Shown one piece after another: positions 4,748 to 41,885 of a stretch of 64,000 bases of DNA (its first letter is position 1; each line of letters opens with the position of its first letter). This stretch comes from a virus. Taxonomy: Duplodnaviria; Caudoviricetes. A program made the translations under genes and the position numbers. The stretch spans positions 1-64,000 of the IMG/VR virus record IMGVR_UViG_3300032086_004057. One strand, 5' to 3'. Under the pieces are notes generated by a model. It was not told where the DNA came from. It worked only from the letters and a program-made list of their open reading frames with translations, and did no database searches.

Positions 4748-5569
4748 ATGGATATTTTCTTTACTCATTTTTATGGCAGAATGTCTGACGTCATGGGCAT
4801 AATAAACTGCGGTGCCTATGCAGAAAATATCTCAGTAGACGAAGAGCAATACGCTTTAGAAAATGGTTGGACTAAACTTGAAAGTGCTAAGAATAAAGAT
4901 ATCTGGTACCAAAGCAGACAAACAAGAATAAAAGTATCGGAATTAAAATATAATAAAAAAATAAGAAAAATGACTAATCCTTGTAAGGATATAAAGTCAG
5001 AAGTTAAGATGCTTAAAGATTGCGACGTTGAAGAATTAAGAAAGGTTTATTGTGATTACATAAAATTGAAAAGCGATCAGTACAAAGAATCTGATGAAAT
5101 TTTTTCAGAATTTTATACTCATGACGAGTTTTTTAACGATTTACTGATAGACCCAGAATATAAAAGAGTTATAGAATACAGAGAAAATGGTGAGCTCCAC
5201 GCTTTCGTTTTTTGCAGGGTTTATGAAAAAGCTAATATAACAACTTCAATACAATTTTGTTGGGATTACCACAATCCAAAAACATTTCTAGGGAAATATA
5301 GCTGCGTAAAAGAAATAGAAATGTGCATAAACGAGGGTTTAGAGTATGTTTATTTAGGGGGCGGCTATGAAAATATGTGCATATACAAGTCAATGTACCA
5401 AGGGTTTGAGTGGTGGACTGGTAGCGAGTGGTCTAAAGACAAAGAAGCTTATAAAACTTTGTGCGCCAGTGACACAGATACAAAAACAATTTACGATTTA
5501 GGGCAACTAGAAGAAAGATACACAGGAGAATTTTTCTTTTCCCCAAATGAAATATCAAAAAGGGTATGA
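4748..5569 (+). CDS. arginyl/leucyl-tRNA-protein transferase-like (ATE1/Bpt family, GNAT-like fold)
   Basis: ALENGW and WYQSRQTRI at the N-terminus; QFCWDYHNPKTFLGKYSCVKEIEMCINEGLEYVYLG...YK matches the ATE_C pattern (YDP...SLG.Y..L.EI......YVYLG...YK). Confidence 0.7.
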   Translation: MDIFFTHFYGRMSDVMGIINCGAYAENISVDEEQYALENGWTKLESAKNKDIWYQSRQTRIKVSELKYNKKIRKMTNPCKDIKSEVKMLKDCDVEELRKVYCDYIKLKSDQYKESDEIFSEFYTHDEFFNDLLIDPEYKRVIEYRENGELHAFVFCRVYEKANITTSIQFCWDYHNPKTFLGKYSCVKEIEMCINEGLEYVYLGGGYENMCIYKSMYQGFEWWTGSEWSKDKEAYKTLCASDTDTKTIYDLGQLEERYTGEFFFSPNEISKRV

Positions 5570-6021
5570 TAGAAGATTATATAAAGTATATCAGTTTAAA
5601 AAGAAAAGAGCTTGGTGGTCACGCAATCTGCCCCTTTGCTAAAAGATTTTTAGATAAAACAGTAATAATAGAATCTAAAGACCTACAAGCAGACGCTATA
5701 AAATGTTTAGAATCTCAAAGCCGCCCAATGCTTTGGATGATATATGGTTGTCCGAATAAGTTTAATAAAAGATGGCTTGAGTCGTTTTGTGAAAAACATA
5801 AAGAAAAAGCTAAGTCAAAAGATTTATGGCTGATATGGGATCACCCTGATCAAGTAAACAAAATAGGAGACGTAGAAACAAATAATAAAGAGTACGGAAT
5901 ACTGTTGATACAACCTCTAACAGAACTAAACGAATACTCTGACAAATTAAAAAACACTAATTATTATGATTTTTGGCAAAAAGACTACTATAAATCGATA
6001 GTAGAAGATAGAAAAAAATAA
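5566..6021 (+). CDS. DUF1415-like protein
   Basis: GGHAICPFAK (CPFA motif) and a later DHP motif; 4-bp overlap with the ATE-like gene. Confidence 0.5.
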   Translation: MIEDYIKYISLKRKELGGHAICPFAKRFLDKTVIIESKDLQADAIKCLESQSRPMLWMIYGCPNKFNKRWLESFCEKHKEKAKSKDLWLIWDHPDQVNKIGDVETNNKEYGILLIQPLTELNEYSDKLKNTNYYDFWQKDYYKSIVEDRKK

Positions 6022-6043
6022 GTGTAAATACTGGAAACGATCA

Positions 6044-6769
6044 ATGAAAGAATTTGAAATAGATTTTACAGAGGAAATAAACGCTCAAGCTTCAGAGGGG
6101 GCAAACTCTTTAGATAAGTTAACCTATAAAAAAACTCCAGAAGTATTTTTAAAAGTCGCTGAAAAAGACTTTAAATACATGGATATAAATATAAAGCCTC
6201 TTTTAGAGCTTTACCCTCCCGCTAATTCTAGCCAACAAACCAAAAATGAACTTCTGCAAGTTAAAAATTTTATGGAGCGATCTCACTCCAAAGAGTTTAC
6301 TTCCAATCTTAAAAGTATGGATGATGAGCCAGCTATGTTTATAATAGATTACTATAAAAAAGCAAGCGGCAAAGAAGTTCCAAAAGTAATTTTAAATTTC
6401 ATAACAGGAGGAGATGTCGAAGTTTTAGCGATGAAACTTAAAATGCATTTTAATAGACCGCGACCTTTTCAAATAGCAGAATATTATAACGTTAATTTAA
6501 ATTACAATAAAACAATTCAACACGGTGCAGCAGATGCGCCGTCTTATCCAAGTGGTCATACTTTATCGGCTTATTTTGCAGCTAGAGTTTTAAGTTATTT
6601 GTATCCAAAATATGAAGATGAGCTATTGAAAAGAGCCATGATGGTTGCTGATTCTAGAATGGCAGAAGGCGTTCACTTTAAAAGCGACAGTATGTTTTCT
6701 TTTTATTTGGTTGACAGGGTTTTAATGCCAGCTTTCATAAAAGCATATGACAAAACAAGAAATAATTAA
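6044..6769 (+). CDS. PAP2/haloperoxidase-superfamily phosphatase
   Basis: KMHFNRPRP, PSYPSGH and SRMAEGVHFKSD are the three PAP2 catalytic motifs. Confidence 0.9.
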   Translation: MKEFEIDFTEEINAQASEGANSLDKLTYKKTPEVFLKVAEKDFKYMDINIKPLLELYPPANSSQQTKNELLQVKNFMERSHSKEFTSNLKSMDDEPAMFIIDYYKKASGKEVPKVILNFITGGDVEVLAMKLKMHFNRPRPFQIAEYYNVNLNYNKTIQHGAADAPSYPSGHTLSAYFAARVLSYLYPKYEDELLKRAMMVADSRMAEGVHFKSDSMFSFYLVDRVLMPAFIKAYDKTRNN

Positions 6770-7169
6770 CTCTTTATCTTTTACTTATTGTAGGATTAAA
6801 CCATCAAAAATACATGGCGTTGGAGTTTTTGCTATAGTAGATATAGATAAAGGTGTGAACTTATTCCCAGACTGCTCTTGCGACTTAAAAAAAATAAAAA
6901 AAATAAACAAAAAAGAAATTTCTAATCTAGCTCCTGACATTTTAAAAATGATGAGCGATTTCCTAATTGAAAGCAAAACTCATTATTTCACAACTACGTC
7001 TTTAAACAATATAAACATATCTTACTTCTTGAATCATTCAGACCAACCAAATTGCGAGTGGGTAGAAAAAGATGACTCCTTTCGGCCTTTGAAAAACATA
7101 AAAAACCAAGAAGAGCTAACTATAAACTACGAAAAATATCTTGAAAGCGACGTTATAAAAAATGTATAA
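6747..7169 (+). CDS. SET-domain methyltransferase
   Basis: PSKIHGVGVFA, NHSDQPNC and EELTINY SET motifs. Confidence 0.9.
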   Translation: MTKQEIINSLSFTYCRIKPSKIHGVGVFAIVDIDKGVNLFPDCSCDLKKIKKINKKEISNLAPDILKMMSDFLIESKTHYFTTTSLNNINISYFLNHSDQPNCEWVEKDDSFRPLKNIKNQEELTINYEKYLESDVIKNV

Positions 7170-7512
7170 AAATTTAGCACCAGATATTCAAAGGCAAAGA
7201 CTTGTCATAGAAGGAACTTTACATAATCCATTTAAAGCAGAAGAAATGGATCGATTTTGTAGGGAAATGACAAAAGTATTAAACATGACAGAAGTTACTG
7301 CCCCGTTCTGCAACTACGACCCAGATTACGGTTGGTGCGCTTATGTCCACTGGAAAGAGAGCGGTATGCATATCTACGCTTGGGACGACAGAACTCCTTG
7401 TTTCTTCTCTGTGGATATCTATACTTGCAGAGAGTTTCAGGTAGAAAGCGCGTTAAATTATGTAAAAGATTTTTTTAAAGAAAACTTAATTGAAGTTACT
7501 TGGAAAGATTAG
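7162..7512 (+). CDS. speD: S-adenosylmethionine decarboxylase proenzyme (class I, pyruvoyl)
   Basis: HWKE-SGMHIYAW (E-S autocleavage site) and SVDIYTC. Confidence 0.75.
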   Translation: MYKNLAPDIQRQRLVIEGTLHNPFKAEEMDRFCREMTKVLNMTEVTAPFCNYDPDYGWCAYVHWKESGMHIYAWDDRTPCFFSVDIYTCREFQVESALNYVKDFFKENLIEVTWKD

Positions 7513-7514
7513 TT

Positions 7515-7709
7515 TTACCAATGTCTTATCACATTTGCGATAATAAAGAAACAAGTTATCAAGTTCACTATTATAATCAGCGTTCTTATTAGAAGGCTAT
7601 ATCCTGCATCTTTATTTGTTAGTATTGGAATATCTGGTTTATCATCATCAGTCTTTCCAATTCTGTGATCTACAGTCCTAGCCCAAATTAGCCAAAGTCT
7701 TTTAAGCAT
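7515..7709 (-). CDS. small membrane protein
   Basis: 64 aa with a C-terminal hydrophobic helix. Confidence 0.6.
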   Translation of the reverse strand: MLKRLWLIWARTVDHRIGKTDDDKPDIPILTNKDAGYSLLIRTLIIIVNLITCFFIIANVIRHW

Positions 7710-8205
7710 CTTTAACCGCTTTTCTTCTAACCCCTAAGTGCTTTCTCATCCAAGCGATTTGATTATTAGTTTTATTTTTAAAAAACATTCTTCTAAGATC
7801 ATCGCTAGAATAATCTGCGCCGTGATCCAGTAGTACCCCCCGCTCTTCGTTAGTCCACACTGGCGGCTTGTGAAGCTTCATGCTTTGCTTCTTAGCGTTA
7901 ACTTGGATTGGGGTTTTATTTGGTATAAATCTTTCGCTTATTTGACGTTGATCGTAATCTTTCCAAACTTTTAATAACGTCTCAACTTCGTCAGGAGCCC
8001 ATCTTTGATTATGTGGCCCTCTCCTTATGCCCGCTTCAAGTCTGGCTGTTTGCACGGCTCTAGTGCTTCTGTGGGGCAATAAAAATTTACTGATTTGCGC
8101 GTCTGAATACTTCTTGTAATTATCTTTTATTAATTTTAATTCAGACTGTTTCCACTTACGTTTAGCTTGATAACGGTCTCTACCTTTGATTAAATTTGGG
8201 TGCAT
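7702..8205 (-). CDS. Myb/SANT-like repeat protein
   Basis: Three repeats of about 50 aa starting WKQSELKLI, WAPDEVETL and WTNEERGVL. Confidence 0.55.
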   Translation of the reverse strand: MHPNLIKGRDRYQAKRKWKQSELKLIKDNYKKYSDAQISKFLLPHRSTRAVQTARLEAGIRRGPHNQRWAPDEVETLLKVWKDYDQRQISERFIPNKTPIQVNAKKQSMKLHKPPVWTNEERGVLLDHGADYSSDDLRRMFFKNKTNNQIAWMRKHLGVRRKAVKDA

Positions 8206-8206
8206 T

Positions 8207-8509
8207 TTAAGTAAGGTTTTTCAGTTTATGGTTTTCAAGTTTTAAATCTTGTAGCTCTTTTTCTTTACGAATAAGGAGCTCTTTGGCTTCTCTCAGCAGT
8301 TTAAGTGCTTTATTTAGACTTTGTTTGCTTGTGGTGTAGCCTTTGTGATAAGCGATGATGGCTTTATTTGATTTCTCTACTTTTTCTTTGCAATTGTCAA
8401 TTACATCTAGAGTCCTTCTGTTCTCGTAAAAAGAACCCACAAGTGCACCAGATACAAAGCAAATTAGAAACGCAATTATGTAACCATGTTTGAGGAGAAA
8501 TTTATTCAT
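8207..8509 (-). CDS. membrane-anchored coiled-coil protein
   Basis: N-terminal TM helix followed by a heptad-rich tail. Confidence 0.55.
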   Translation of the reverse strand: MNKFLLKHGYIIAFLICFVSGALVGSFYENRRTLDVIDNCKEKVEKSNKAIIAYHKGYTTSKQSLNKALKLLREAKELLIRKEKELQDLKLENHKLKNLT

Positions 8510-8841
8510 TGACTTTCATGATAAGCTTTTGCCTCATCGTAATCTGAATAGTGACTTCTAGGCTGTTCCGTTTCCTTGAATCTCGGCGGCATGAGCTTTG
8601 TGTAAACATCTCTTTGTTTTTTACAGGTAAGGTGCTCGTAAGTTTCTGTACGAGGGCGAGTATGTTTGTTTAAGTAGTCTTGCCTATGTTGGCAGTCCAA
8701 CTTTGCGTCCTCCAAATCTATAAATTCAACATACAGAGAGAAAAATCTTTGCACTCTTTTTGTTTTTGGCGCGACCCACCAAGTTAGTCTAAATAAAATT
8801 TTAAATAAAAATGTTCTCATTTTGTTTTTTTCCACACCCAC
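8506..8841 (-). CDS. hypothetical protein
   Basis: ORF track, 111 aa; operon packing. Confidence 0.5.
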   Translation of the reverse strand: MGVEKNKMRTFLFKILFRLTWWVAPKTKRVQRFFSLYVEFIDLEDAKLDCQHRQDYLNKHTRPRTETYEHLTCKKQRDVYTKLMPPRFKETEQPRSHYSDYDEAKAYHESQ

Positions 8842-9941
8842 ATTGGTTCAGCGAATCTACCAAGCTTGCCTTTTAAAGATTTAGAGTTTGGTCTTTTTCT
8901 CATTTGATATCCCATACAACCACAATACTTTGAATTTTTTAAAGAATCAAGAAAATCGTTCATTGGATCGCAGATTTTATTTACTGTATGTTTAGCGTAA
9001 ACATCGCTGATATTTATCACCATTTTGCCCCCATCTTCTAGAGCGTCCCAACAATTAGATAAAGACTTGAATAAAAAATTTTCTAGCCAATCTTGTAATT
9101 GTTTATACTTTTTCCAAGACTGGTTATCCTCTTGAGTATATCTTTCTAGAGTGTAATAAGGAGGGGAAGTGAAAACTAAATCAAATTTTTTTCCTTTAAA
9201 GTCTACATCTTCAGCGCACTCATTTACTAGTTGCACTTGTTTATCTTTTTGTAAATATTCTATCATCTCATAATATTTAGGAAAAAGCTTAGAATTTGGG
9301 TCAATACCAAAATAGCTTTGAGCGTCACTAGCTAGAAAACCGCAAAGTCTGTCTCCCCATCCAGAGCTAAAATCTAAAACATTCTTAGCTTTAAAATGGT
9401 TGTATACAGCTTTTGCTGTTGAGGGTCTGAACTGACTAGCTATGTACTTCCTTAGAGCTATACAGTTCCTTAAATCCTTAGAGGTTACTTGTTTTAATTT
9501 TAAACTCCAAAGAGCTTTAAGCATTGTTAACCTAAATTTTTCTTGAGTCCAAGATCGATAGGGGCTTGGTGCGGTAATACTATCACACATCCATCTATTC
9601 TCTTGTTGAAAATAATCAGAGGTTTTATTGCCAGTGTTACAGCAAGAAAAAACCACATCAGTAAAAAAATACTTTGATTTGTATTCGTATCTAGTGAACC
9701 ATTCTGAATCGGTTTGTATGATATCTTTGTGGTCTAAATCTAGAAGCTTTTTAAACTCGTAAGCCGCATCGTCTTTGCTTATTTGTCTCATGGGCATTGG
9801 TAAATTATTTTTACCGATAGCGTCAGAGATTGCTAATTTAATATCTTCAATATCATAAATATTATTTAAATACTCCCAGTTTTGAGAGTCTATAAATATT
9901 TCGTCTTCTTTAACGATACCAAAAGAATCTAAGGAGGTCAC
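8817..9941 (-). CDS. amino-DNA methyltransferase (m6A/m4C), orphan
   Basis: SAM-binding LDFSSGWGDR precedes the catalytic FTSPPY. Confidence 0.85.
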   Translation of the reverse strand: MTSLDSFGIVKEDEIFIDSQNWEYLNNIYDIEDIKLAISDAIGKNNLPMPMRQISKDDAAYEFKKLLDLDHKDIIQTDSEWFTRYEYKSKYFFTDVVFSCCNTGNKTSDYFQQENRWMCDSITAPSPYRSWTQEKFRLTMLKALWSLKLKQVTSKDLRNCIALRKYIASQFRPSTAKAVYNHFKAKNVLDFSSGWGDRLCGFLASDAQSYFGIDPNSKLFPKYYEMIEYLQKDKQVQLVNECAEDVDFKGKKFDLVFTSPPYYTLERYTQEDNQSWKKYKQLQDWLENFLFKSLSNCWDALEDGGKMVINISDVYAKHTVNKICDPMNDFLDSLKNSKYCGCMGYQMRKRPNSKSLKGKLGRFAEPMWVWKKTK

Positions 9942-9984
9942 TCAAGTGAGTGTGTATTTTTTTTGAAGAAACGTCAACGAAAAT

Positions 9985-10359
9985 TTAATTTTCATTCTTT
10001 TTAGTTATCTTTTTTAACTTTTCTAAAAACACTTTGTATATTTTATTGGCAGCTAGTAATCTTTTTTTAGTTTCTGGGTCTTTGGCGTTTTTAGCTGCGA
10101 ATCTAGACCTCTGCTCCATAGCCATAGTAGCTTGAACTTTATGTTTATGCGGCTTGTTGGATTTTTCTATTATAGAAATACTCTGTCTAGCAGATTTAGC
10201 ATCTTTAAAGCCTAAGCCTTTTATTGTGCCTTTTGGATTTTCATCCGTATAAAGATCAGAGTGTTCGGATTTTGGTCTAGTGGTTCCATCTTTTCTTTTT
10301 TCAGGAATCCTTTTTCTAGCTCGTATATGGTCAGTAAAATCTATTTCAAATTCTTTCAT
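9985..10359 (-). CDS. basic phage protein, candidate internal head protein
   Basis: SDLYTDENPKGTIKGLGFKD...HKVQATMAMEQR domain is typical of large myoviruses; Lys/Arg-rich. Confidence 0.6.
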   Translation of the reverse strand: MKEFEIDFTDHIRARKRIPEKRKDGTTRPKSEHSDLYTDENPKGTIKGLGFKDAKSARQSISIIEKSNKPHKHKVQATMAMEQRSRFAAKNAKDPETKKRLLAANKIYKVFLEKLKKITKKNEN

Positions 10360-10522
10360 GGATTTTAAGTAATAAATAAATATTAATCGCGAAGCTAATA
10401 AGAGATAAGGAGCCTAAAAAAATAAACTTTTTATTTACAGATTCTATTTCAGAGTCAAACTCTTCAACGTCCACTTTCCATTGGTTATTTTTTTTGCTTT
10501 TGTGGTAGAAGCGATTTGACAT
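10346..10522 (-). CDS. small membrane protein
   Basis: The start is probably ATG 10522, 9 nt downstream of an AGTGTA motif; C-terminal TM helix. Confidence 0.5.
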   Translation of the reverse strand: MSNRFYHKSKKNNQWKVDVEEFDSEIESVNKKFIFLGSLSLISFAINIYLLLKIHERI

Positions 10523-10542
10523 ACTATATATTACACTATTTT

Positions 10543-10947
10543 TTATCTCCAAACCCTGTAACTATCAGAATCCTCATGGAAGGTACTCGTTTCGACTAAT
10601 TCCACGTTACCATCGTAGGCAATCAGTTGGTGTGGTTGACCGCGTTGAATTTCCATAACATCTCCTTGTTTAAGGAGCTTATAACCTGTGTTACCAGATT
10701 TTGTATAAATTAGGTCAACCCTTAACTCTCCGCTTAATATGTAAAAAGTCTCATGCTTTTTAAGATGATAATGCATGGAAGACCTGTAGCCTTCGTAAAT
10801 TTTTAATATTTTACCGCAATAATTTTCTTCACGATTATTAGCCATCCAGATTTCATGTCCCCAATCTTTTTCTACGAATTTACTTTCAATCGGCTTTTTA
10901 ATTTTAGCTTGACCCTCTCTCCAGATTTCTCCGCCGCTTTTTTTCAT
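10543..10947 (-). CDS. cupin-domain protein (sugar isomerase-like)
   Basis: KDWGHEIW, SMHYHLKKHETFYIL and GQPHQL cupin motifs. Confidence 0.8.
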   Translation of the reverse strand: MKKSGGEIWREGQAKIKKPIESKFVEKDWGHEIWMANNREENYCGKILKIYEGYRSSMHYHLKKHETFYILSGELRVDLIYTKSGNTGYKLLKQGDVMEIQRGQPHQLIAYDGNVELVETSTFHEDSDSYRVWR

Positions 10948-11479: not shown

Positions 11480-11480
11480 T

Positions 11481-11861: not shown

Positions 11862-11866
11862 AATTT

Positions 11867-14097: not shown

Positions 14098-14172
14098 TGG
14101 TAGGCAATGAGGGATTCGAACCCCCGACTTTCTCGGTGTAAACGAGACACTCTACCACTGAGTTAATTGCCC
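14098..14172 (-). tRNA. tRNA-Val (TAC)
   Basis: GGGCAAT acceptor stem, ACTC/GAGT D-stem, TCTCG-TTTACAC-CGAGA anticodon arm, GTTCGAATC T-loop and encoded CCA; 75 nt. Confidence 0.96.
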
Positions 14173-14588
14173 GTGCTACCGAAACCTCCAGCTTCTCTTT
14201 CGGAAACGTCTAAAGATAAAACTGTTTCAAAATTCATGTCTTCACATTTTTCAAAAATTAATTGAGCGATTCGAGAAGACTTTGGTAAGCTTACAGATTC
14301 AAACTTATCAGTGTTTATTAGCACTACACCGATTTCACCATTATAGCCCGAATCTATTACGCCAGCTAAAACATCTACGCCATTTTTTACAGCTAGTCCA
14401 CTTCTGGGCGCAATCCTTCCATAAAATCCAGCGGGTATAGAAAGCTTAATTCCAGTTTTTACGACTTTCCTCTGAGAAGGTTTTAGAAGAACATCTTCGG
14501 TAGAAAACAAATCATATCCCGCGTCAGTCACATGAGACTTGGTGGGGTATCTAGAATCTGAATTTAATAATACTATTTTACAGTTCAT
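14163..14588 (-). CDS. dut: trimeric dUTPase
   Basis: AGYDL, PRSGLA, GVIDSGYNGE, RIAQL and GGFGSTG (motifs 1-5). Confidence 0.97.
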   Translation of the reverse strand: MNCKIVLLNSDSRYPTKSHVTDAGYDLFSTEDVLLKPSQRKVVKTGIKLSIPAGFYGRIAPRSGLAVKNGVDVLAGVIDSGYNGEIGVVLINTDKFESVSLPKSSRIAQLIFEKCEDMNFETVLSLDVSEREAGGFGSTGN

Positions 14589-15676
14589 TTTATTCCAAGT
14601 TTCTTTTTAGTTTCTCTCGCTAAATCGTTATCGGCCCAAACACCGCCAAGTTCGGGGATGTATTCAGCAGCTTTCTCTGTATTTTCTTTTGCTGTAATCA
14701 CTCTCATATTATCTTGATGGTGAGCACCGCCAATACTTAAAGCGATAATGTGATCAACGTGATACAGTTCATTATATTTTTCCGACATTTTAGCCCTTTT
14801 CTCGTAAAGCTTTTTAATTATTTTAAAATCGGTTGAAGGAATTATAGCTTGTTTTTTTATCGCTCGCCTTTTCATTTCAAAGGAATGGACAGCCGCTTTA
14901 TTATTTTTTCTATAAGCTTTTACCCTAGCCTTAACCTTATCCTTGTTAGCTTTGTAGAGGGCTTTTTTGAGTTCTTTTCTTGAGTCGTTGTAAGCCTTTA
15001 TCTTATCCTTATTGGCCGCGTTGTAAGCTTTTCTGCGAGCCTTTATCTGATCTTTATTGGTCTCTTGGTAAGCCCTTATTTTCTCTTTATTAGCCTCACC
15101 ATAAGCTTTTTTATAAGCCCTTCTTTTCTCTTTGTTAGCGTCAGCATAAGCCTTATGTTGAGCCTTTATCTTCTCTTTGTTGGCCTCGTAGTAGGCTTTT
15201 TTGTAAGCCCTTATTTTCTCTTTATTAGCCTCGTTCGAAATCTTTTTTTGAGCCTTTACCTTCTCTTTGTTAGCCTTATCCCAAATCTTTGCATAAGCCG
15301 CTATCTTTTTTTTGTTAGCCCCGTAATAACCCGCCGCACGAGCCGCCAACTTCTCTTTGTTGGCTTGACGATAAGCTTTGTTTCGAGCCTTTATCTTCTC
15401 TTTGTTAGCCTCGTAGTACGCTTTTTCATAAGCCATTTTCTTCTCTTTGTTGGCTTCACGATAAACCTTGTCTTTAGCCTTTATCTTTTCTTTATTAGCC
15501 TCACGATAAGCTTTTACCGTAGCCTTCACCTTATTCTTGTTAGCTTCGTAATAAGCCTTGTCTTTAGCCTTTATCTTTTCTTTATTAGCCTCACGATAAG
15601 CTTTTGCCTTATCCTTATTAGCTGCGTACCAAGCCCTTTTATAAGCCTTTCTCTCCTCTGGGTTTTTTGGGGCCAT
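14585..15676 (-). CDS. HNH endonuclease with a long N-terminal helical repeat region (free-standing homing endonuclease)
   Basis: About 20 copies of KAY(R/Y)EANKEKI-like 11-mers, then HVDHIIALSIGGAHHQDNMRVITAKENTEK. Confidence 0.85.
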   Translation of the reverse strand: MAPKNPEERKAYKRAWYAANKDKAKAYREANKEKIKAKDKAYYEANKNKVKATVKAYREANKEKIKAKDKVYREANKEKKMAYEKAYYEANKEKIKARNKAYRQANKEKLAARAAGYYGANKKKIAAYAKIWDKANKEKVKAQKKISNEANKEKIRAYKKAYYEANKEKIKAQHKAYADANKEKRRAYKKAYGEANKEKIRAYQETNKDQIKARRKAYNAANKDKIKAYNDSRKELKKALYKANKDKVKARVKAYRKNNKAAVHSFEMKRRAIKKQAIIPSTDFKIIKKLYEKRAKMSEKYNELYHVDHIIALSIGGAHHQDNMRVITAKENTEKAAEYIPELGGVWADNDLARETKKKLGIK

Positions 15677-16411: not shown

Positions 16412-17124
16412 TGAAGGGATTCTAAAATCTTTTTGGTGTGATTACAATCTTTTACGTCAAAAAATTTCCCGTCATTATTATTATTTATATTTATTTTAGC
16501 GTCGTAATCATTGCCACCCTCGAAGCCTTTATCACCAAAATAATAAATTTTATTATACATTCCAGAGTCTCTTACCCAATCCACAGCTTGAGATTTGTTA
16601 AAACCTTTTGGTTGTATGTCTAAACTTATCATTCCTCCAATTCTTATATCTAAATTAGGGAATTCTTCAGATAAATCATTAGCTATAGTTTCTCTTTCGG
16701 AATGGATTTTATCCCATTCGAAATATTTTTTTCTTTCGTTTTCGTTTGAGTCTCTCCCCGCGATAGAGAAATTTATCATTCCCACTCTTTTATCAATATA
16801 TTTTTTACCTTTTTGTTGGTAAGGGGATTTCATATGCCACTCTAAAAGCTTAGAAAGTAATTCTACGGAAGGCTTCCATTCTCTTTTGTATATTAATTTA
16901 TTTTTAATTCTAAGTTCATTACCCATAGAGGAAAAAATACCGCAAGCTCTAGAAAAAATGCTTGAAGGTAGCTGCCTTAGTAGAGAATTATTAGAACTAC
17001 CGCCAACCAAGAAAAAATCTTTACTTTTTGACCAGTCTAAAAAACTATAAATAAAATCCCCCTGCATTTTTTGCGTAGGAGGAGTTAGGGTTCCGTCTAT
17101 ATCAAACAAGTAAGCTGTTTTCAC
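16408..17124 (-). CDS. phosphomannomutase, eukaryote-type (HAD IIB)
   Basis: LFDIDGTLTP, RVGMINFS, GGMISLDI and FGDKGFEGGNDY. Confidence 0.9.
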   Translation of the reverse strand: MKTAYLFDIDGTLTPPTQKMQGDFIYSFLDWSKSKDFFLVGGSSNNSLLRQLPSSIFSRACGIFSSMGNELRIKNKLIYKREWKPSVELLSKLLEWHMKSPYQQKGKKYIDKRVGMINFSIAGRDSNENERKKYFEWDKIHSERETIANDLSEEFPNLDIRIGGMISLDIQPKGFNKSQAVDWVRDSGMYNKIYYFGDKGFEGGNDYDAKININNNNDGKFFDVKDCNHTKKILESLQ

Positions 17125-17456
17125 TCTTTTTTTTTATTTTTTCGTCTCTCAGGAGAATTAAAAAGTCTTTTTGGTAAACGCCATCCGTTTTGATATAAAA
17201 AATTACTGCATACGTCTGCAAATCTTGCTATGTCAGTCTCAGATTTATCCCAAAAGAAAGCATGAGCGATCTCATGAATGCTTGTGTTTAGCTCGGACTT
17301 TTTAGTAAGGTAAGGGTTAATATAAATTTTTGGATCAGGCTCGCTTGGGTCTAAGCACAAGCCATCTACTATTTCACCGTAAGCTTTGTGAGGTTTTCGA
17401 AAAACAATTTCGTACTCTGCGCCTTTAGTGTTTGTAAATCTAAAGTTTTCTTTCAT
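17121..17456 (-). CDS. zincin-like (HExxH) metalloprotein
   Basis: IHEIAHAF. Confidence 0.6.
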   Translation of the reverse strand: MKENFRFTNTKGAEYEIVFRKPHKAYGEIVDGLCLDPSEPDPKIYINPYLTKKSELNTSIHEIAHAFFWDKSETDIARFADVCSNFLYQNGWRLPKRLFNSPERRKNKKKE

Positions 17457-20199: not shown

Positions 20200-20706
20200 T
20201 TGTTAAAAATGAAAGACGAAATGAAAATCAATTTAAGTAAAGCATCAAGAAGAGATGTTTTTGTAAGAGATGCAAGAATACTAATATTAATATTAGCATT
20301 GGGTATTATTTTTCACTTATCTTTTCTTTGGCTGTCTATAGATGGAGAAAGTATGTTTGACACTTACTCAGACGGAGAGGAAGTATTGGTAAATAGAGTT
20401 AGCCACAAAATTATAAAATTAAGTAGAGGAGATGTGATAGCATTCTCAAATGATGGCGGCAAAGAGATACTTGTAAAAAGGATCATTGGAATGCCAAATG
20501 AAAAAATAAAAACTTTTGATGGCCAAATATTTATAGATGATGTACTCTACGAAGACGAATTCTCAGAAAGAAACGACGAGTATTCTTTTGGTTATGTTAA
20601 TTATACACTAAAACAAGATGAATATTGGGTCGTTGGCGATAATAGATCAAACACTTGGAGTGGTAAAATAAAAAAAGAGAATATTATAGGGGTTATTCTA
20701 AACTAA
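20200..20706 (+). CDS. signal peptidase I (S26)
   Basis: TM helix, GESM (catalytic Ser), LVKRIIG (catalytic Lys) and GDNR. Confidence 0.9.
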   Translation: MLKMKDEMKINLSKASRRDVFVRDARILILILALGIIFHLSFLWLSIDGESMFDTYSDGEEVLVNRVSHKIIKLSRGDVIAFSNDGGKEILVKRIIGMPNEKIKTFDGQIFIDDVLYEDEFSERNDEYSFGYVNYTLKQDEYWVVGDNRSNTWSGKIKKENIIGVILN

Positions 20707-23353: not shown

Positions 23354-23710
23354 CTAGTCAATATTTATTTTTATTGGTTTAGCAGATTCTTTTTTATTTA
23401 TCTGAATATTTAAAATCCCGTTTTCATATTTAGCGGAAATAGAGTTTTTGTCGCAATCTTTTTTTATAAAATAAGTTCTCTTAGATTTACCGCTTTTAAC
23501 GACTAAAAAATCTTCGTCTTTATTGTTTTGCTCGATTGAAACATCTATGTCTTTTTTATGTGTTCCAGCTAAATTAATTTTATAATTATAAGACTCCTCA
23601 TCTTCAGAACAGTCCTCTATGCTGTAGTCAAAATAGTGCACGTTTAATTGGTTGGTTATTTGATTTAACATGTCCACCATTGGGTCTCTAAGAAATATTG
23701 ATTTGTACAT
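23354..23710 (-). CDS. small heat-shock protein (Hsp20/alpha-crystallin)
   Basis: INLAGTHKKDIDV and ISAKYENGILNIQINK. Confidence 0.88.
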   Translation of the reverse strand: MYKSIFLRDPMVDMLNQITNQLNVHYFDYSIEDCSEDEESYNYKINLAGTHKKDIDVSIEQNNKDEDFLVVKSGKSKRTYFIKKDCDKNSISAKYENGILNIQINKKESAKPIKINID

Positions 23711-34515: not shown

Positions 34516-34537
34516 AAAATAAGTGTATTAATATTAC

Positions 34538-34840: not shown

Positions 34841-34875
34841 TTGATTTTCAGTCAAATACCCGTTAAAATATACGG

Positions 34876-35727: not shown

Positions 35728-36656
35728 AAAAATCATTAGTAACAGGTGGCTGCGGATTCATTGGAAGCCATTTAGTAGACAATCTTGTGGATAAAGGTCA
35801 CCAAGTCTACGTTATAGACGACCTATCCTCAGAGTGTAATGAAGAATTTTATTTTAACAAAAGTGCAATTTATCTACATGAGGATATTAAAAACTATAAC
35901 AAAATAGAGCATTTTTTTAAAGATATAAATTACGTATTCCACTTAGCCGCTGAATCAAGAATTCAACCCACGTTAAATAGACCCCAAGATGCTTGCATGA
36001 CTAACTTTGTTGGCACATGTAACATACTTGAAGCTGCAAAAAATTATAATATCTCTAGATTTGTTTACTCTAGTACATCATCTGCTTATGGCAGAAAAAA
36101 TTACAGTATAGCTTACAAACTCTTAAACAAACCCTGCGAATTAAGAGAGGATATGCCAAGAGACTGCCTTAATCCGTATTCCGTCTCGAAGGTCGCGGCA
36201 GAAGATTTATGTAAAATATATTACTCCTTATGGGGTTTAAACACTATCACGTTCAGATACTTCAACGTTTACGGGGAAAGACAACCAACTAAAGGCAGAT
36301 ATGCGCCAGTTTTAGGCTTATTTATTAAACAAAAAAACGAAAATAAACCAATGACAATCGTGGGAGACGGAAAGCAGCGCAGAGATTTTACCCATGTGAG
36401 TGATATCGTAAATGCCAATATATTAGCTATGGAATCCGAAGAGCTCTCAAAAATATCAGGTGAAGTTTTCAACGTCGGGACAGGGCGCAATCATTCGATT
36501 CTTGAAATAGCTAAAATGATTGGCGAGCAAGTAGAGTATCTGCCACCAAGGTTAGGTGAAGCTCAAGAAACCTTAGCTGACATTCATAAGATTTCTAGTC
36601 GTTTAGGCTATAAGCCCTCCGTTAGACTGGAAGATTGGGTTTCTAAAAACAAATGA
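35724..36656 (+). CDS. NAD-dependent nucleotide-sugar epimerase/dehydratase
   Basis: TGGCGFIGSH, YSVSK (YxxxK), RYFNVYG and RDFTHV. Confidence 0.95.
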   Translation: MKKSLVTGGCGFIGSHLVDNLVDKGHQVYVIDDLSSECNEEFYFNKSAIYLHEDIKNYNKIEHFFKDINYVFHLAAESRIQPTLNRPQDACMTNFVGTCNILEAAKNYNISRFVYSSTSSAYGRKNYSIAYKLLNKPCELREDMPRDCLNPYSVSKVAAEDLCKIYYSLWGLNTITFRYFNVYGERQPTKGRYAPVLGLFIKQKNENKPMTIVGDGKQRRDFTHVSDIVNANILAMESEELSKISGEVFNVGTGRNHSILEIAKMIGEQVEYLPPRLGEAQETLADIHKISSRLGYKPSVRLEDWVSKNK

Positions 36657-37633
36657 AGGCCATTGTAGTTGGTTGTGGTATAAGCGGTATAGTATCCGCT
36701 ATCCTTTTAAAAGAAAAAGGTTATGAAGTAGAGATATTTGACACTAGAAGTCACATTGGCGGGAACTGCTACGATCACGAAGTAGAAGGTGTGAGAGTAC
36801 ATAAATACGGACCGCACGGATTTCACACAAACAATGAAAATGTTTGGAGCTTTTTAAACAGATACTCTAAATTTAATGACGTTTGCTTAAAGGCGAAAGC
36901 CAACACTAAAGAAGGGATAATTCCGATACCTTACTCTCCTGAAACTGAAAAAATAATAGGATACAAAACTCCAGAAGAAATACAAGATTTAATATTTAAA
37001 GATTATAGCGAAAAAATGTGGGGAATACCTTGGGAAGAGCTCCCAAAGTCTATAAGCGGCAGACTCCCCAATAAAAGAGAAGACCCAAGTGAATGTTTCC
37101 ACTTAGATACCTATCAAGGTATACCTGAGAACGGGTACACTAGTATGTTTAAAAACATGCTCAACTCAATTAAGGTTAATTTAAACTGTAAACCTAAAGA
37201 CTACCAAAATAAAAAATATGATATTTTAATTTATACTGGTAAAATAGATGAGTTTTTTGACTATTGTTATGGGTGGCTAGAGTACAGGTCTTTAAAAATA
37301 CAATTTGAAACAGCTAAACCGAGACCAGATTTATTTCAACTAAACGAATGTAATGATTGGAACTCTTGGACAAGAAGCGTTGACCATTCTCATTGGCACA
37401 AGCAGAAACTTAATCAAACTGTAATCTCTAGAGAATACCCATGCGAGCACGACAAGAATAATTTACCATTCTACCCTAAACCCTTCGGAAGCAACCCAGA
37501 AAAATATAAAAAATATAAAAAAATTGCAGATAGACTAAACGACGTTATCTTTGTTGGTAGACTGGCAACTTATAAATATTTAGATATGGATGATGCAGTC
37601 GCTCAAGTTTTTACTAAATTAAATAAAATATGA
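36653..37633 (+). CDS. glf: UDP-galactopyranose mutase
   Basis: GCGISG, HIGGNCYD, HKYGPHGFHT and GRLATYKYLDMD. Confidence 0.93.
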   Translation: MKAIVVGCGISGIVSAILLKEKGYEVEIFDTRSHIGGNCYDHEVEGVRVHKYGPHGFHTNNENVWSFLNRYSKFNDVCLKAKANTKEGIIPIPYSPETEKIIGYKTPEEIQDLIFKDYSEKMWGIPWEELPKSISGRLPNKREDPSECFHLDTYQGIPENGYTSMFKNMLNSIKVNLNCKPKDYQNKKYDILIYTGKIDEFFDYCYGWLEYRSLKIQFETAKPRPDLFQLNECNDWNSWTRSVDHSHWHKQKLNQTVISREYPCEHDKNNLPFYPKPFGSNPEKYKKYKKIADRLNDVIFVGRLATYKYLDMDDAVAQVFTKLNKI

Positions 37634-38691
37634 AAAAAGTCATAATCACAGGTATACTCGGCCAAGACGGCTCAAATATGGCGGAATACCTTCTGCTTAA
37701 AAGTGATTTAAATTGCAAGGTCTACGGGATGATGCGTAGAAGCGCTAACCCTAATTTCATTAACACTAAAAAATTTGAAAATCATCCTAATTTTGAATTT
37801 GTATACGGGGATTTAACTGATGAAATTAGCATTGATAATCTAGTTAAAAAAATACAACCAGATTATTTTATTAATTTTGCAGCTAATTCTTTTGTAGGTT
37901 GTAGCTGGGACATGCCGTTACAAGTAATGGATACTAACGCTGTTGGTGTTTTAAGATGTCTTGAGTCAATTAAAAAATTTAAAAAAGATTGCAGGTTTTA
38001 CAGCGCTGGGAGCAGCGAGGAATGGGGGGATGTTGATTATTCGCCGCAAGACATTATGCATCCAATTAAACCCAGAAGCCCTTACGGAGCATCTAAAGCT
38101 GCCGCAAGACACCTAGTAAAAGTTTACAGAGAATCATATGGAATGTACGCGGTTCACGGGATACTTTTCAATCACGAAGGCACTAAACGCGGCGAAGAAT
38201 TTGTCACCAGAAAGATAACAAAAAATGTAGCCAGAATCAAAAAAGAAATACAGTTTTATCTTGAATCTGGTAGACAAAGCAGAATTACCCCACTTGAGTT
38301 AGGTAACCTAGACGCTAAAAGAGATTGGAGCGACAGCGAAGACTTTATGGAAGGGGTGTGGCTTATGCTGAATCAAGACTTAAACAACACAAAAGACTAT
38401 ATACTCTCAAGCGGCGAAACGCACTCTATAAGAGAGTTTGTTGAAAAAGCCTTTGGTTACGCGGAAATACACGGGGTTTGGAGCGGAGATGGTCTAGAAG
38501 AAAAATTCCTCTTAAACGTAAAAGGCGAGCAAGTGACTTTATTAAAAATAAATAAAGACTTTTTTAGACCAGCGGAAGTCGATCTTCTCCTTGGTGACTC
38601 AAAACCAATAATGAAAGAACTTGGATGGAAACCTAAAAATTCTTTTTGCGATTTAGTCAAAAAAATGATACAACATGACTTGAATGAGTGA
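37630..38691 (+). CDS. gmd: GDP-mannose 4,6-dehydratase
   Basis: TGILGQDGS, SPYGASK, LFNHEG..RGEEFVTRKIT and LGNLDAKRDW. Confidence 0.96.
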   Translation: MKKVIITGILGQDGSNMAEYLLLKSDLNCKVYGMMRRSANPNFINTKKFENHPNFEFVYGDLTDEISIDNLVKKIQPDYFINFAANSFVGCSWDMPLQVMDTNAVGVLRCLESIKKFKKDCRFYSAGSSEEWGDVDYSPQDIMHPIKPRSPYGASKAAARHLVKVYRESYGMYAVHGILFNHEGTKRGEEFVTRKITKNVARIKKEIQFYLESGRQSRITPLELGNLDAKRDWSDSEDFMEGVWLMLNQDLNNTKDYILSSGETHSIREFVEKAFGYAEIHGVWSGDGLEEKFLLNVKGEQVTLLKINKDFFRPAEVDLLLGDSKPIMKELGWKPKNSFCDLVKKMIQHDLNE

Positions 38692-39121
38692 TGAAAAACA
38701 ATTTAGCGTTGGCAGAAAAATCGTATCATCTAAAACAGGCAAACCTCCGTTCATACGCAATAAATATCAAGTTTTAATTTGGCAGTTAATTAAAAATCCA
38801 AACGATTTCTGCCATATAGAGTGGTCGAGAGAAACCAAAGCCGCAAAGCTACTATACTTTCAATATCCTGATATTAACTTCTGGAGACAGCTAGATTTAG
38901 GTTTTTACTTAAACTCTTTAAACTTTTTCAACAAATCAGATGGTTTAAGAAAATTAAGAGAAGCTATAGATGAGTATGAACTATCCAAAAAGGTTAAGTT
39001 CTCAACAAAAGAAAAGGAAAAAACAGTAGAAGACCTTGATACCTTTCATAAAGAAATCAAAACCAAAAAACAGGATTTAAGATACGGAGACTTTTTTAAG
39101 CATGGCAAAAAAACAAAATAA
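38684..39121 (+). CDS. hypothetical protein
   Basis: ORF track, 145 aa. Confidence 0.6.
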   Translation: MSDEKQFSVGRKIVSSKTGKPPFIRNKYQVLIWQLIKNPNDFCHIEWSRETKAAKLLYFQYPDINFWRQLDLGFYLNSLNFFNKSDGLRKLREAIDEYELSKKVKFSTKEKEKTVEDLDTFHKEIKTKKQDLRYGDFFKHGKKTK

Positions 39122-40370
39122 AGTAAAAATATGTCTTTGGACTCACGTTCAAAACGAAGCTTCCGTTATCGAAAAGATGCTCGAAACAGCGGTTGACTAC
39201 ATAGACTATTGGGTTCTTGTAGATAATGGGTCAACCGATGGAACCCAAGATATAATTAAAAACTTTTTCGAAAAGCACGGCATTGAAGGCAAACTTTACC
39301 AAAGTAAAATCGGCTGGAAAGGTCATGGTATCAATAGACAGCATTCATGGGAATTCTTAGAAAACACAGACCACGGGTGTGATTACATTCTAAGGATAGA
39401 CGCAGACGAAGGTATTGCAGTGGATGAGAATTTCGACTGGTCAATTATTCCATCCCAAGAAGCGTGGTCTATAATTTATCAATCTGGTAATCATTGTGTT
39501 CCTAGAATGTGGATGTGGAAATGGGGTTTACCTTGGTACTGGGCTGATGACGTAGCTCATGAAACTATCCACTTAAAAGACGGAAGGCAACCCGATCAAC
39601 CTAAAAACATGCCCATAGGTTTTAAGCATGTAAATATAGGCAAAGGTAATAGCTACGAAAATCCTATAAAATATATACAAGATGTTTTAAAACTTGAAAA
39701 TCAATTACATGAAAGATTTAGAGATGGTAGCTCTTTAGAAAAAGAAAGATATCATTTATTTTATTTATGCAAATCTTTCAATTATACAGGATTCTCATTA
39801 AATAATGAAAATTGCTATAAATACTTTCCATACGGAAAAAAACAGTTGAAAAGCTTTTTAGAAAAGGGTATATTCTACTACGACAGATTCTTAGAGTCTT
39901 TCCAAGACAGCGGTGAACGCTGGTACACTCTGCACTTAAAAGCTCAATTATTCGAAAGATTAAATTTAGCCCAAGAGGCTCTAGATTGCTATAAAGAGTC
40001 TTACAATTTAAGGCAAGACAGAGCAGAGTCTTTATTTAGGATTTTTAATTATTATTATTATAAACAAGAATGGGAATCAGCTTTTAAATACGGACTTAAA
40101 CTAAAAAATTTAAAATGCCCTATTGAAACAGACGCATGGCAAGTGGAGCTAGATAATTACTATGAAAATAATTGGCAAATAAGAGATTGCTTTGCGGTAA
40201 CATTAGAAAGAATTGGCTCCCAGCTAAAAAATACAACTTTACTTGAGGAATCAAAATCTATATTTGAATCTCTAAAAAAAGAATTTAAATCGGACAAAGA
40301 TGAAGTAGACAGATTAGACGGGAATATAAAATATATACAAGGAAAAATTAATGAGAAAAAAGAAAACTGA
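39102..40370 (+). CDS. GT2 glycosyltransferase with C-terminal TPR repeats
   Basis: VQNEASVIEKML, VDNGSTDGT and RIDADE; TPR-like C-terminus. Confidence 0.85.
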   Translation: MAKKQNKVKICLWTHVQNEASVIEKMLETAVDYIDYWVLVDNGSTDGTQDIIKNFFEKHGIEGKLYQSKIGWKGHGINRQHSWEFLENTDHGCDYILRIDADEGIAVDENFDWSIIPSQEAWSIIYQSGNHCVPRMWMWKWGLPWYWADDVAHETIHLKDGRQPDQPKNMPIGFKHVNIGKGNSYENPIKYIQDVLKLENQLHERFRDGSSLEKERYHLFYLCKSFNYTGFSLNNENCYKYFPYGKKQLKSFLEKGIFYYDRFLESFQDSGERWYTLHLKAQLFERLNLAQEALDCYKESYNLRQDRAESLFRIFNYYYYKQEWESAFKYGLKLKNLKCPIETDAWQVELDNYYENNWQIRDCFAVTLERIGSQLKNTTLLEESKSIFESLKKEFKSDKDEVDRLDGNIKYIQGKINEKKEN

Positions 40371-41448
40371 AGCTGCTGGCAATTTTACAGCCCTAGATCA
40401 AATTGAAGCTTATTTAAAAGCTAATCAATCTGATCACTATAATTTTGAAGAACAAAGAGATTACACGGTTTCAAGTGGAAGCTTAAAACTTGATATCGAA
40501 ATGGGTGGAGGAATTAAACCAGGTGTCATTAGAGCATCTGGGGTTACAGAAGGCGGCAAAACTTCCTGCGCGTTATCTTTCGCTAGAAATTTCCAGAAGA
40601 TGGATAATTCTATGATTGTCTACATAAAATCAGAAGGCAGACTTTCAGAAGAAATGCTTGAACGCTCTGGGGTAAACACTGATCCAGACAGATTTTTTAT
40701 TTATAAGTGTAATATTTTTGAGTCTGTAATTGATTTAATTAGGCAGTTAGTACACAACAACCCTAACGATACTCGATACATGTTTATCGTTGACTCTATG
40801 GACGCTCTCGTACCAAGAGGCGACCTAGAAAAAAGCTCTGATGAAGCCGTAAAAGTTGCGGGCGGTTCGTTGCTCACTTCCGATTTCCTTAAAAGAATGG
40901 CTTTGTCTTTTGCGAGTAAAGGGCACATTTGCTACATGATTTCTCAGGTGAGAAGCAATATAAAAATAAATCCATACGAAAAAGGTGACCCACAAATTAC
41001 AAACGCTTCTGGCGGTAACGCAGCACTTCATTACAGCGATTGGATTCTAGAGTTTCAGCCAAGATTTAACAAAGACTTGATATCAACACAACCAAACGGT
41101 AAAGGGGAAGCTCTTGGTCATTGGTGTAAAATTATATTTAGAAAAACCGCCAACGAAAAAACTGGTATAGAAGTCAAATACCCCATTCGATACGGAAGAA
41201 CGGGCGGTAAAAGTATTTGGGCTGAATATGAAGTGGTAGAGATGCTGCAAATGTTTGACCTTGCTCAAGCTAAAGGCGCTTGGGTAACCATAAACGATGA
41301 GATTATTGAAGAGGTTAAAGAAAAGCTTAATTTAGAGTTCAAAAAGCAACATCAAGGCGTAGACAATCTAAGAAAATACTTTGAAGAAAATAAAGAAATA
41401 GGGAAATACTTATTTAGTAAATTTATTGAAGTATTGAAAAAGTCTTGA
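40351..41448 (+). CDS. recA: RecA/UvsX recombinase
   Basis: SSGSLKLDIEMGGG, GVTEGGKTS, IVDSMDAL and ISQVR..I..GGNA..HYS. Confidence 0.9.
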   Translation: MRKKKTEAAGNFTALDQIEAYLKANQSDHYNFEEQRDYTVSSGSLKLDIEMGGGIKPGVIRASGVTEGGKTSCALSFARNFQKMDNSMIVYIKSEGRLSEEMLERSGVNTDPDRFFIYKCNIFESVIDLIRQLVHNNPNDTRYMFIVDSMDALVPRGDLEKSSDEAVKVAGGSLLTSDFLKRMALSFASKGHICYMISQVRSNIKINPYEKGDPQITNASGGNAALHYSDWILEFQPRFNKDLISTQPNGKGEALGHWCKIIFRKTANEKTGIEVKYPIRYGRTGGKSIWAEYEVVEMLQMFDLAQAKGAWVTINDEIIEEVKEKLNLEFKKQHQGVDNLRKYFEENKEIGKYLFSKFIEVLKKS

Positions 41449-41482
41449 TTTAGATTCAAAAAAACAGTGTAATATACTTTAA

Positions 41483-41885
41483 GGGGGCGTACTGGTATCG
41501 ATTTAATATCAGACGCTAAAATAGCAAGTCAAGGATGATAGTTGGCCTTGTAAAAATCTATCTAGGTATTCAACTGCCAAAACTGAAGTTGATATGGCTC
41601 CTTCCCTAGCTGAAGCTGACGCGATTCTCGCTAAGTTCGGTTGGGCTGAAGAGGCTGCTGTAGCTGCGTAAGCTACCCGTCCTACTCTGGATGCTCGTTA
41701 AGGAGCTAGGGCGTCGATAACGAGCAAAAAAAGCTAGGAATGAGATGGTCTAGTCTAAATAAAGAGTCTCAAGCCTCGTGCGTAGGTGTTAGTGACGAAG
41801 CACGGGTGTATAACACTGACTAAACTTGTAGAAATTTAAGTTAACGGTATTAAAGACAGGGGTTCAACTCCCCTCGCCTCCACCA
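41483..41885 (+). ncRNA. ssrA: tmRNA
   Basis: GGGGGCG/CGCCTCC acceptor stem with G3.U70, GGTATCGA, T-arm GGGGTTCAACTCCCC and encoded CCA; internal tag ORF ends in AVAA. Confidence 0.96.
41576..41671 (+). other. tmRNA tag reading frame AKTEVDMAPSLAEADAILAKFGWAEEAAVAA
   Basis: Resume context TTCAACT-GCC; 31 codons, then TAA. Confidence 0.8.

Follow-up and report, generated by a model that had tools for sequence, protein, structure and literature searches.

To our knowledge, the aminoacyl-tRNA transferases of the ATE/Bpt superfamily have been described only as cellular writers of N-degrons. The transfer-messenger RNAs (tmRNAs) encoded by phages are found in about 2% of phage genomes, and ribosome rescue or selective tagging has been proposed as their role (PMC9004378; PMC4131195). 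Here we analyze a stretch of phage DNA that encodes both an ATE-like protein and a complete tmRNA with an unusual tag, namely positions 1 to 64,000 of the IMG/VR record IMGVR_UViG_3300032086_004057 (Caudoviricetes); the whole stretch of 64,000 nucleotides (nt) is referred to below as the window. An earlier note on this DNA had joined these two genes to an overlap between dut, the dUTPase gene, and a tRNA gene, an Hsp20 protein, an HExxH protein and a signal peptidase, as parts of one integrated system that would write both N- and C-degrons. We have to conclude that most of the proposed members are unrelated passengers and that such an integrated system is not established. The stretch is better read, with what we judge to be an even chance, as an auxiliary-gene region of an uncultured marine tailed phage that carries several independent host-manipulation genes, not one degron-writing machine. 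Beneath this reading lie the gene identities, their conservation, fold and linkage, and the coding selection on the tag, all of which were observed directly in the analysis.

So how does this locus compare with the systems already described? The phage protein shares with ATE1 and Bpt the GNAT-type ATE_C core and the catalytic Tyr-Lys pair, has an invariant acidic residue (E189) in line with the donor-pocket residue E277 of klAte1, and differs from them in its size, about half that of ATE1, in having no Cys4 site, in its Bpt scores (44 vs 252 bits), and in that the phage branch was found here in viral contigs. The tmRNA resembles those of the mycobacteriophage Bxz1 group, Bacillus phage G, Melnitz and the pelagimyophages in being a complete ssrA of a large phage of the lytic type and in its location next to tRNA-rich auxiliary regions. 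It is a one-piece molecule, whereas the marine Melnitz type is a two-piece one. Its tag of 30-31 residues, roughly three times as long as usual, has a helical middle part that is conserved, and diverged phages have retained it at the level of the peptide. A third comparison involves the protein of 151 amino acids (aa) with an invariant Cys-Pro whose gene abuts the ATE-like gene. Together, these two would resemble AglC and AglA, an aminoacyl-tRNA-dependent transferase and a small thiolate-haem enzyme of the sandwich fold that acts on the transferred residue, which could thus serve, by analogy, as a precedent for the pairing of a transferase with a haem hydroxylase. The structural link to AglA is modest, though (Z 7.0), with no sequence match and with 151 aa in the phage partner vs 243 aa in AglA, and AglC is likened to the ATE-like phage transferase by role, not by family. 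The eukaryotic Cys/Arg branch of the N-degron pathway likewise couples an oxygenase-like protein to an ATE-family transferase, but the oxidases of that branch are non-haem iron dioxygenases whereas the phage partner is a candidate haem-type enzyme.

The ATE-like gene that the earlier note had reported is indeed present.

4748-5569 (+): ATE/Bpt-superfamily aminoacyl-tRNA transferase-like protein P0039, 273 aa, assigned by Pfam ATE_C, by alignment, and to ATE1 by sequence and fold

The protein matches Pfam PF04377 (ATE_C, the GNAT core) at 38 bits, over a cut-off of 25, and the NCBIfam equivalog models for Bpt at no better than 43.9 bits, far under their cut-off of 252. The best sequence match of the family profile in the PDB is yeast ATE1 (E 9e-5); ATE1 is also the best fold match of the structure model (pLDDT 87) in Foldseek (E 1e-8), followed by MprF, FemX and L/F-transferase, all of which are aminoacyl-tRNA-dependent GNAT transferases. 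The SxG, YLG and YK motifs align between the phage protein and ATE1/Bpt. We compared individual residues in an alignment of 22 family members, with the positions of klAte1 mapped via the printed alignment and the mutational data of PMC9351520.

Y213-K214 (invariant): catalytic Y303-K304 of klAte1, conserved
W172: W260 of klAte1, conserved
E189 (invariant): E277 of klAte1, which binds the Arg side chain; Gln in Bpt (Q189)
V201: Y289 of klAte1; Leu in Bpt (L201)

The pocket for the donor side chain contains Glu277 in ATE1, for which the donor is Arg, vs Gln189 in Bpt, for which the donor is Leu (PMC9351520). The invariant E189 at the position of Glu277 suggests a basic donor, possibly Arg, for the phage enzyme as well. 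The metal site of klAte1 consists of C23, C26, C95 and C96 (PMC9351520). The Pfam scan of the phage protein detected no ATE_N domain at E<=0.01, and no invariant Cys that could correspond to the Cys4 metal site of that domain, which holds Zn or Fe-S, was found in the 22 aligned members. In the same alignment, the residues after the invariant G40-W41 are variable and non-basic. We take this segment to be the probable counterpart of the basic pocket of ATE1 (klAte1 R80, in a GFRRSG-type motif). Altogether, the protein is a real but aberrant member of the superfamily that has probably retained the transferase chemistry; the basic pocket is apparently not conserved, which makes an acidic N-terminus an improbable acceptor.

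The family to which this protein belongs comprises 405 confirmed IMG/VR stretches. A tblastn search of 50,697 deposited phage genomes (E 1e-3) produced no match, PHROGs holds no family for the protein, and we found no report of a phage-encoded ATE or Bpt in the literature. A viral ATE-like branch of at least 405 loci, without the metal site and often accompanied by a putative haem enzyme, is absent from the collections of cultured phages; it would extend aminoacyl-tRNA-dependent transfer chemistry to viruses, whether the target is a protein end or a metabolite. One complete IMG/VR genome of 221 kb (G028) carries two ATE-like copies, at 48676-49332 and 198566-199222, with neither a tmRNA nor the 151-aa partner.

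In the window, the partner gene immediately follows the ATE-like gene.

5566-6021 (+): 151-aa Cys-Pro protein P0041, candidate thiolate-haem protein of the sandwich fold; its start overlaps the stop of the ATE-like gene

This open reading frame (ORF) was singled out by a neighbour survey in which all window proteins were compared by tblastn with 80 ATE-bearing loci, some of them near-duplicates. By profile search, 35 of the 80 loci have the partner at most 2 kb from the ATE-like gene, with the two abutting in 30 (13 co-directional and 17 convergent), and each of the 17 close partner homologues has an ATE-like gene no more than 1.7 kb away. The invariant residues are C22-P23, seen in 12 diverged members, and D92-H93-P94. 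The identification of the partner has to be pieced together from several comparisons. DUF6875 is weakly matched by 6 of the 12 members (best E 5e-4), with P0041 itself unmatched; the nearest Atlas clusters are DUF1415/DUF6875 (feature score 0.93); and VIA pairs the protein with AglA (9ub3) at Z 7.0 and a root-mean-square deviation of 3.4 over 132 of 151 residues, the runner-up being at Z 4.3. Foldseek returned nothing under E 0.02, and the PDB sequence search no significant match. The predicted complex of the ATE-like protein with the partner scored 0.00, which speaks neither for nor against an interaction. The thiolate-haem enzymes of the sandwich fold take in YqcI/YcgG, DUF6875 (P422) and DUF1415. 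In AglA as in the DUF6875 (P422) proteins, which hydroxylate Arg or Trp, the haem is ligated by a thiolate (PMC12866846; bioRxiv 10.64898/2025.12.11.692455), and the phage protein, judged by its sequence and its model, is a candidate thiolate-haem oxygenase.

The other component that holds up is the tmRNA, for which the earlier note had claimed an odd tag.

41483-41885 (+): one-piece tmRNA with acceptor-stem pair G3-U70 and encoded CCA, identified by Rfam and ARAGORN
41576-41671 (+): tag frame of the tmRNA, with resume codon GCC, 31 codons and stop TAA, identified by ARAGORN and by coding constraint

The match to Rfam RF00023 extends over the whole length (model positions 1-374) at 135.3 bits, against a gathering score of 47. 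In the acceptor stem, the 5' GGGGGCG pairs with CGCCTCC, which is followed by ACCA, and this pairing includes G3-U70, the identity pair for alanine. The tag read by ARAGORN has 31 residues, AKTEVDMAPSLAEADAILAKFGWAEEAAVAA, and ends in AAVAA. We read the tags at 20 loci with ARAGORN, and the same tag family was found in G007 and in G009, G012 and G013, the ATE-like proteins of which are only 39-45% identical to that of the window. In an alignment of five tmRNAs, the variable columns at codon positions 1/2/3 of the tag frame number 5/2/14, pairwise codon differences are synonymous in 59 cases vs non-synonymous in 26, and the sole indel, of 3 nt, keeps the frame. With this third-position bias and a frame-keeping indel, the sequence record indicates that the tag of 30-31 aa is a selected peptide, presumably translated, and not an artefact of annotation; its conserved middle reads DMAPS..EADAILAKFGW.EE. 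Long tags are not mentioned in two accounts of phage tmRNAs (PMC9004378; PMC4131195). The purpose of phage tmRNAs has so far been obscure, and a selected tag of three times the usual length indicates that the peptide is itself of consequence.

Elsewhere in the lineage the tags differ: some are basic, at 20-31 aa, some are acidic, at 21 aa, and one is an ordinary tag with 13 aa. In G014 and G018 (loci L104 and L106), which belong to the same polymerase lineage, the tags of 20-31 aa are strongly basic, rich in K/R and end in LALAA, so the charge of the tag has flipped within this lineage. A second set of viral tmRNAs, in G003-G006 (L007, L010, L016 and L023), shares an identical 27-nt 3' end and has long acidic tags of 24-33 aa that end in LAA and contain a recurring LAEA..I..NF-like segment. 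When a 38-nt pattern specific to the tag was sought in 185,579 species genomes, the only match was the 793-bp contig JAAZYK010000267.1 (L113), which carries a phage-type tmRNA tag region and is binned to a metagenome-assembled genome of Dehalococcoidia. This contig is probably phage DNA mis-binned into a bacterial genome, and no host is assigned. No SmpB was found in five complete related phage genomes (in the window, Pfam scans covered most of the ORFs), so host SmpB would presumably have to serve.

Do the ATE-like gene and the tmRNA belong together? Among 38 ATE-bearing IMG/VR records, a full tmRNA is present in 12. All of these are closer ATE relatives, a group in which 4 of 4 complete genomes have it. 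Each gene also occurs without the other: the complete G028 and the near-complete G030 have the ATE-like gene and no tmRNA, and the complete 227-kb phage G003 has a long-tag tmRNA and no ATE-like gene. Relatives were gathered via the polymerase as well, with a search method validated on known positives, and in this sample both genes are absent from G047 and G049, which are complete or nearly so.

Polymerase clade A (G015, G016, G018): ATE-like gene present, tmRNA present
Polymerase clade B (window, G009): ATE-like gene present, tmRNA present
Polymerase clade C (G047, G049): ATE-like gene absent, tmRNA absent

The two genes are 36 kb apart in the window, and their spacing ranges overall from 0.7 to 83 kb. 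The proposed parts of the system lie on both strands over 37 kb, among genes for nucleotide and sugar metabolism and replication. No phage-encoded ClpS was detected.

Three of these further parts, all proteins, have the following locations.

23354-23710 (-): Hsp20 / alpha-crystallin small heat-shock protein, by family matches
20200-20706 (+): type I signal peptidase (S26) with an N-terminal transmembrane helix, by family match and Ser/Lys motifs
17121-17456 (-): 111-aa ORF with an HEIAH motif and no family match

The Hsp20 and the signal peptidase are as had been claimed, the latter with TIGR02227 at 86 bits vs 47, a transmembrane stretch and the GESM and KRIIG motifs; for the supposed HExxH protein, it is the motif that survives. 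Only one of the four complete genomes that have both the ATE-like gene and the tmRNA encodes Hsp20, and S26 is likewise found in one of four. To judge from its sequence, S26 is anchored in the membrane with its active site on the exported side and would act outside the cytoplasm. The idea that it makes N-termini for the transferase was dropped, given the transmembrane anchor, the exported active site and its location beside an ATE-like gene in G009 only. In that phage, a signal peptidase I gene is found about 220 nt downstream of the ATE-like gene and co-directional with it (L026 10975-11385; G009:104522-105007), in the position that the 151-aa partner holds in other phages.

The remaining part, a built-in non-stop substrate, was proposed from an overlap of two genes.

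14098-14172 (-): tRNA-Val(UAC) with the CCA encoded; its first base coincides with position 3 of the Thr139 codon of the dUTPase
14163-14588 (-): dUTPase, 141 aa, with its stop TAA (14165-14163) inside the tRNA-Val

The overlap is real, 10 nt long and inclusive of the stop codon, and if the tRNA is processed out of a transcript that reads through from dut, the RNase P cut would leave the dut mRNA without a stop codon. Beyond the window, the arrangement was found only in L001, where the ATE-like protein is 97% identical, whereas in L002 the tRNA-Val is part of a tRNA array instead, and with the arrangement limited to the window and L001 there is no sign of selection for it. We prefer to see in the overlap a chance result of tight packing, one tolerated by the phage, whose own tmRNA may help with this.

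Co-expression of the ATE-like gene and the tmRNA had been proposed from a shared AAGTGTA motif. This heptamer is not found upstream of the tmRNA, where the sequence at 41465-41476 is CAGTGTAATATA, and its 14 exact copies in the window, vs 10.3 expected, make it no commoner than chance. What the two genes have in common is an A-rich tract followed by AGTGTA.

4729-4734 (+): AGTGTA gene-start or promoter-like motif, 19 nt upstream of the ATG of the ATE-like gene
41466-41471 (+): AGTGTA motif, 17 nt upstream of the tmRNA 5' end and conserved there in relatives

An AGTGTA-type motif recurs upstream of the tmRNA across the relatives in the clade. In the window, the element precedes the ATG of about ten ORFs by 15-23 nt, and 11 of its 34 sites are followed by an ATG-initiated ORF within 10-30 nt, vs a mean of 7% for permuted hexamers. 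With AGTGTA in front of about a dozen genes, the sequence pattern indicates a general gene-start or promoter-like element, not one reserved for the ATE-like gene and the tmRNA, that could define at most one large expression class. The sites with an A-rich tract are 905(-), 4729, 6021, 10537(-), 13100, 18117(-), 19659(-), 19665, 20193(-), 33490, 34522 and 41466. The 15-23 nt between the element and the ATG leave no room for a Shine-Dalgarno sequence, which suggests a phage-specific promoter that would give leaderless or near-leaderless mRNAs. Two sigma factors are encoded by the phage (1207-2076 and 13332-13973).

Which of the possible readings best accommodates all these findings? Several of them weigh against the reading as independent host-manipulation genes. 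The ATE-like gene and the tmRNA are concordant in presence or absence in 7 of 7 complete or near-complete genomes of the polymerase lineage, and they are 0.7 kb apart in G012 and about 2 kb apart in G015 and G019. As to the ATE-like pair, no more than 3 of the 63 distant partner homologues are encoded within 4 kb of an ATE-like gene, and G009 and G028, both complete, encode ATE-like proteins but not the 151-aa partner, so that the coupling, for all the loci in which it is seen, is recurrent but optional; the matches behind the haem assignment are weak; and the basic donor is deduced from one aligned residue, with the second position, V201, looking Bpt-like. The concordance, a positive outcome within this lineage of the co-occurrence test that the earlier note had proposed, is nevertheless a single contrast on the polymerase tree, one branch with two losses, so function is not separable from shared ancestry, which explains the pattern equally well. 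It is a lead for phage control of host proteolysis and not yet evidence of it. The degron-writer system of the earlier note would consist of a co-expressed ATE-like enzyme (N-degron) and tmRNA (C-degron), helped by Hsp20, the HExxH protein and S26 and fed by the dut/tRNA non-stop transcript, and would redirect host proteases. The joint absence from clade C and the short distances in three genomes speak for it, as do the AGTGTA at both genes in the window phage, a tag that ends in AAVAA, and the prospect that RNase P cutting at G1 of the tRNA-Val would remove the dut stop codon. Nevertheless, we consider it improbable as a whole, feeding by the non-stop transcript included: each of the two genes stands alone in other complete phage genomes, at distances that vary widely where both are present; the motif stands before about a dozen genes that are unrelated; the occurrence of Hsp20 and S26 is patchy, and S26, anchored in the membrane, acts on exported proteins; the HExxH protein is a motif; the overlap is confined to the window and a relative with a 97%-identical ATE-like protein; neither ClpS nor SmpB is phage-encoded; and of the features by which acidic N-termini are recognized, the ATE-like protein is missing the Cys4 site and probably also the basic pocket.

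Of the alternatives that keep the two genes apart, the one we take most seriously, albeit as an unlikely one, has nothing to do with proteolysis: as a pair that tailors small molecules or peptides, the ATE-like enzyme would aminoacylate an amine from aminoacyl-tRNA, perhaps with Arg, and the haem-thiolate partner would hydroxylate the product, on the model of argolaphos biosynthesis, in which the Arg-tRNA-dependent AglC supplies the N-hydroxylase AglA with its substrate. AglA, the best structural match of the partner, has Cys44 as its haem ligand and acts on AMPn-Arg, a substrate prepared with ArgRS, tRNA and AglC (PMC12866846), and DUF6875 (P422) proteins are thiolate-haem Trp hydroxylases with an RxGxVCP motif (bioRxiv 10.64898/2025.12.11.692455), to which the invariant Cys-Pro and the weak DUF6875/DUF1415 signals of the partner can be compared. 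Moreover, MprF and FemX, relatives of the transferase by fold, use non-protein acceptors, and the pocket of ATE1 for acidic N-termini is not conserved. Yet all characterized ATE/Bpt members modify protein N-termini, and the phage protein is closest to ATE1 in both sequence and fold; the ORF scans of the window revealed no nonribosomal peptide synthetase, ATP-grasp or phosphonate genes nearby; and the partner has no match by PDB sequence or by Foldseek. A separate alternative concerns the tmRNA, which might not write degrons at all but rather help recycling, with an irrelevant tag, or compete by titrating host SmpB or tmRNA. The five complete relatives without SmpB are compatible with this, and phage tmRNAs as well as forms with the tRNA-like domain only are known, for which SmpB titration has been proposed (PMC4131195). 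The clear coding selection on the tag frame would be unexpected if the peptide did not matter, however, and the match to the Rfam model runs from one end to the other, through the full mRNA-like domain and the pseudoknot regions, so that we give this alternative only a small chance. A marginally smaller one goes to two-step editing of N-termini, in which a thiolate-haem oxygenase would ready or alter an N-terminal residue and the ATE-like enzyme would attach a basic amino acid taken from tRNA, both kept in the lineage alongside a tmRNA whose long conserved tag would recruit a specific adaptor, such that the phage would control the host's degradation signals at both protein ends; were this true, it would be the viral counterpart of the eukaryotic N-degron branch of oxidation followed by arginylation.

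Under the preferred reading, as independent genes, the tmRNA would probably be transcribed from the general AGTGTA element, the end of which is about 11 nt upstream of the mature 5' end. The host alanyl-tRNA synthetase would charge it with alanine, as G3-U70 suggests, and with host SmpB it would presumably free ribosomes that stall on broken or non-stop mRNAs in the course of infection. The C-terminal AAVAA of the tag looks like a ClpXP-type degron and might act as one, and the conserved middle of the tag would imply an additional binding partner or fate. The ATE-like enzyme most likely moves an aminoacyl group from an aminoacyl-tRNA to an amino group; both the donor and the acceptor are deduced here, and the acceptor would be other than the classical acidic N-terminus. 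The enzyme appears to work with the abutting Cys-Pro protein, in the window phage and in many others.

The ATE-like pair in the window opens a longer block, in which three more genes follow, overlapping and co-directional.

6044-6769 (+): PAP2 / class A acid-phosphatase-like protein, by family match, in the same co-directional block
6747-7169 (+): SET-domain protein, by family match, kept in L033
7162-7512 (+): S-adenosylmethionine decarboxylase-like protein, by family matches

The PAP2-like gene is kept beside the ATE-like gene in L029, L033 and L042, and in G015 (L033) PAP2 and then SET follow the ATE pair in the same order as in the window.

At 36% G+C, the window is densely packed with phage-type genes. 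They include thyX, the two sigma factors, dUTPase, dCMP deaminase and ribonucleotide reductase, many glycosyltransferases and enzymes of nucleoside-diphosphate sugars, and a replication and structural set made up of RecA-like and DnaB-like proteins, a primase, a Pol III alpha-type polymerase and large structural proteins. No support emerged for calling the system integrated: there is no integrase among the window ORFs scanned, both flanks consist of phage genes with no host flank seen, and the relative G009 has direct terminal repeats. A 124.6-kb IMG/VR contig has the same tmRNA tag, a polymerase 100% identical to that of the window and an ATE-like protein 97% identical. At the DNA level, megablast with the 6 kb around the tmRNA found no match among deposited phages. 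The RecA-like and DnaB-like proteins, sought in G001 and G002 as a synteny check, yielded nothing, a result uninformative for synteny. DNA of the window is present in seawater metagenomes from several studies. The runs labelled as RNA turned out to be Logan contigs of viral metagenomes, one with flat, DNA-like cover and the others with patchy cover of relatives. The full 10-kb stretch is also present in runs labelled as single organisms rather than as metagenomes, which could point to a host or to a host-associated culture.

Two further ORFs have the look of mobile genes. A 363-aa ORF at 14585-15676 (-), with a weak HNH match, is located between the dUTPase gene and a nucleoside deoxyribosyltransferase-like gene; it is missing in L001, in which the two flanking genes abut, and is likely a mobile homing endonuclease. 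Immediately downstream of the tmRNA, 6 nt past its 3' end and before the DnaB-like helicase gene, begins a DUF559 ORF with a Vsr-like endonuclease fold, at 41891-42307 (+), which may be another mobile insertion.

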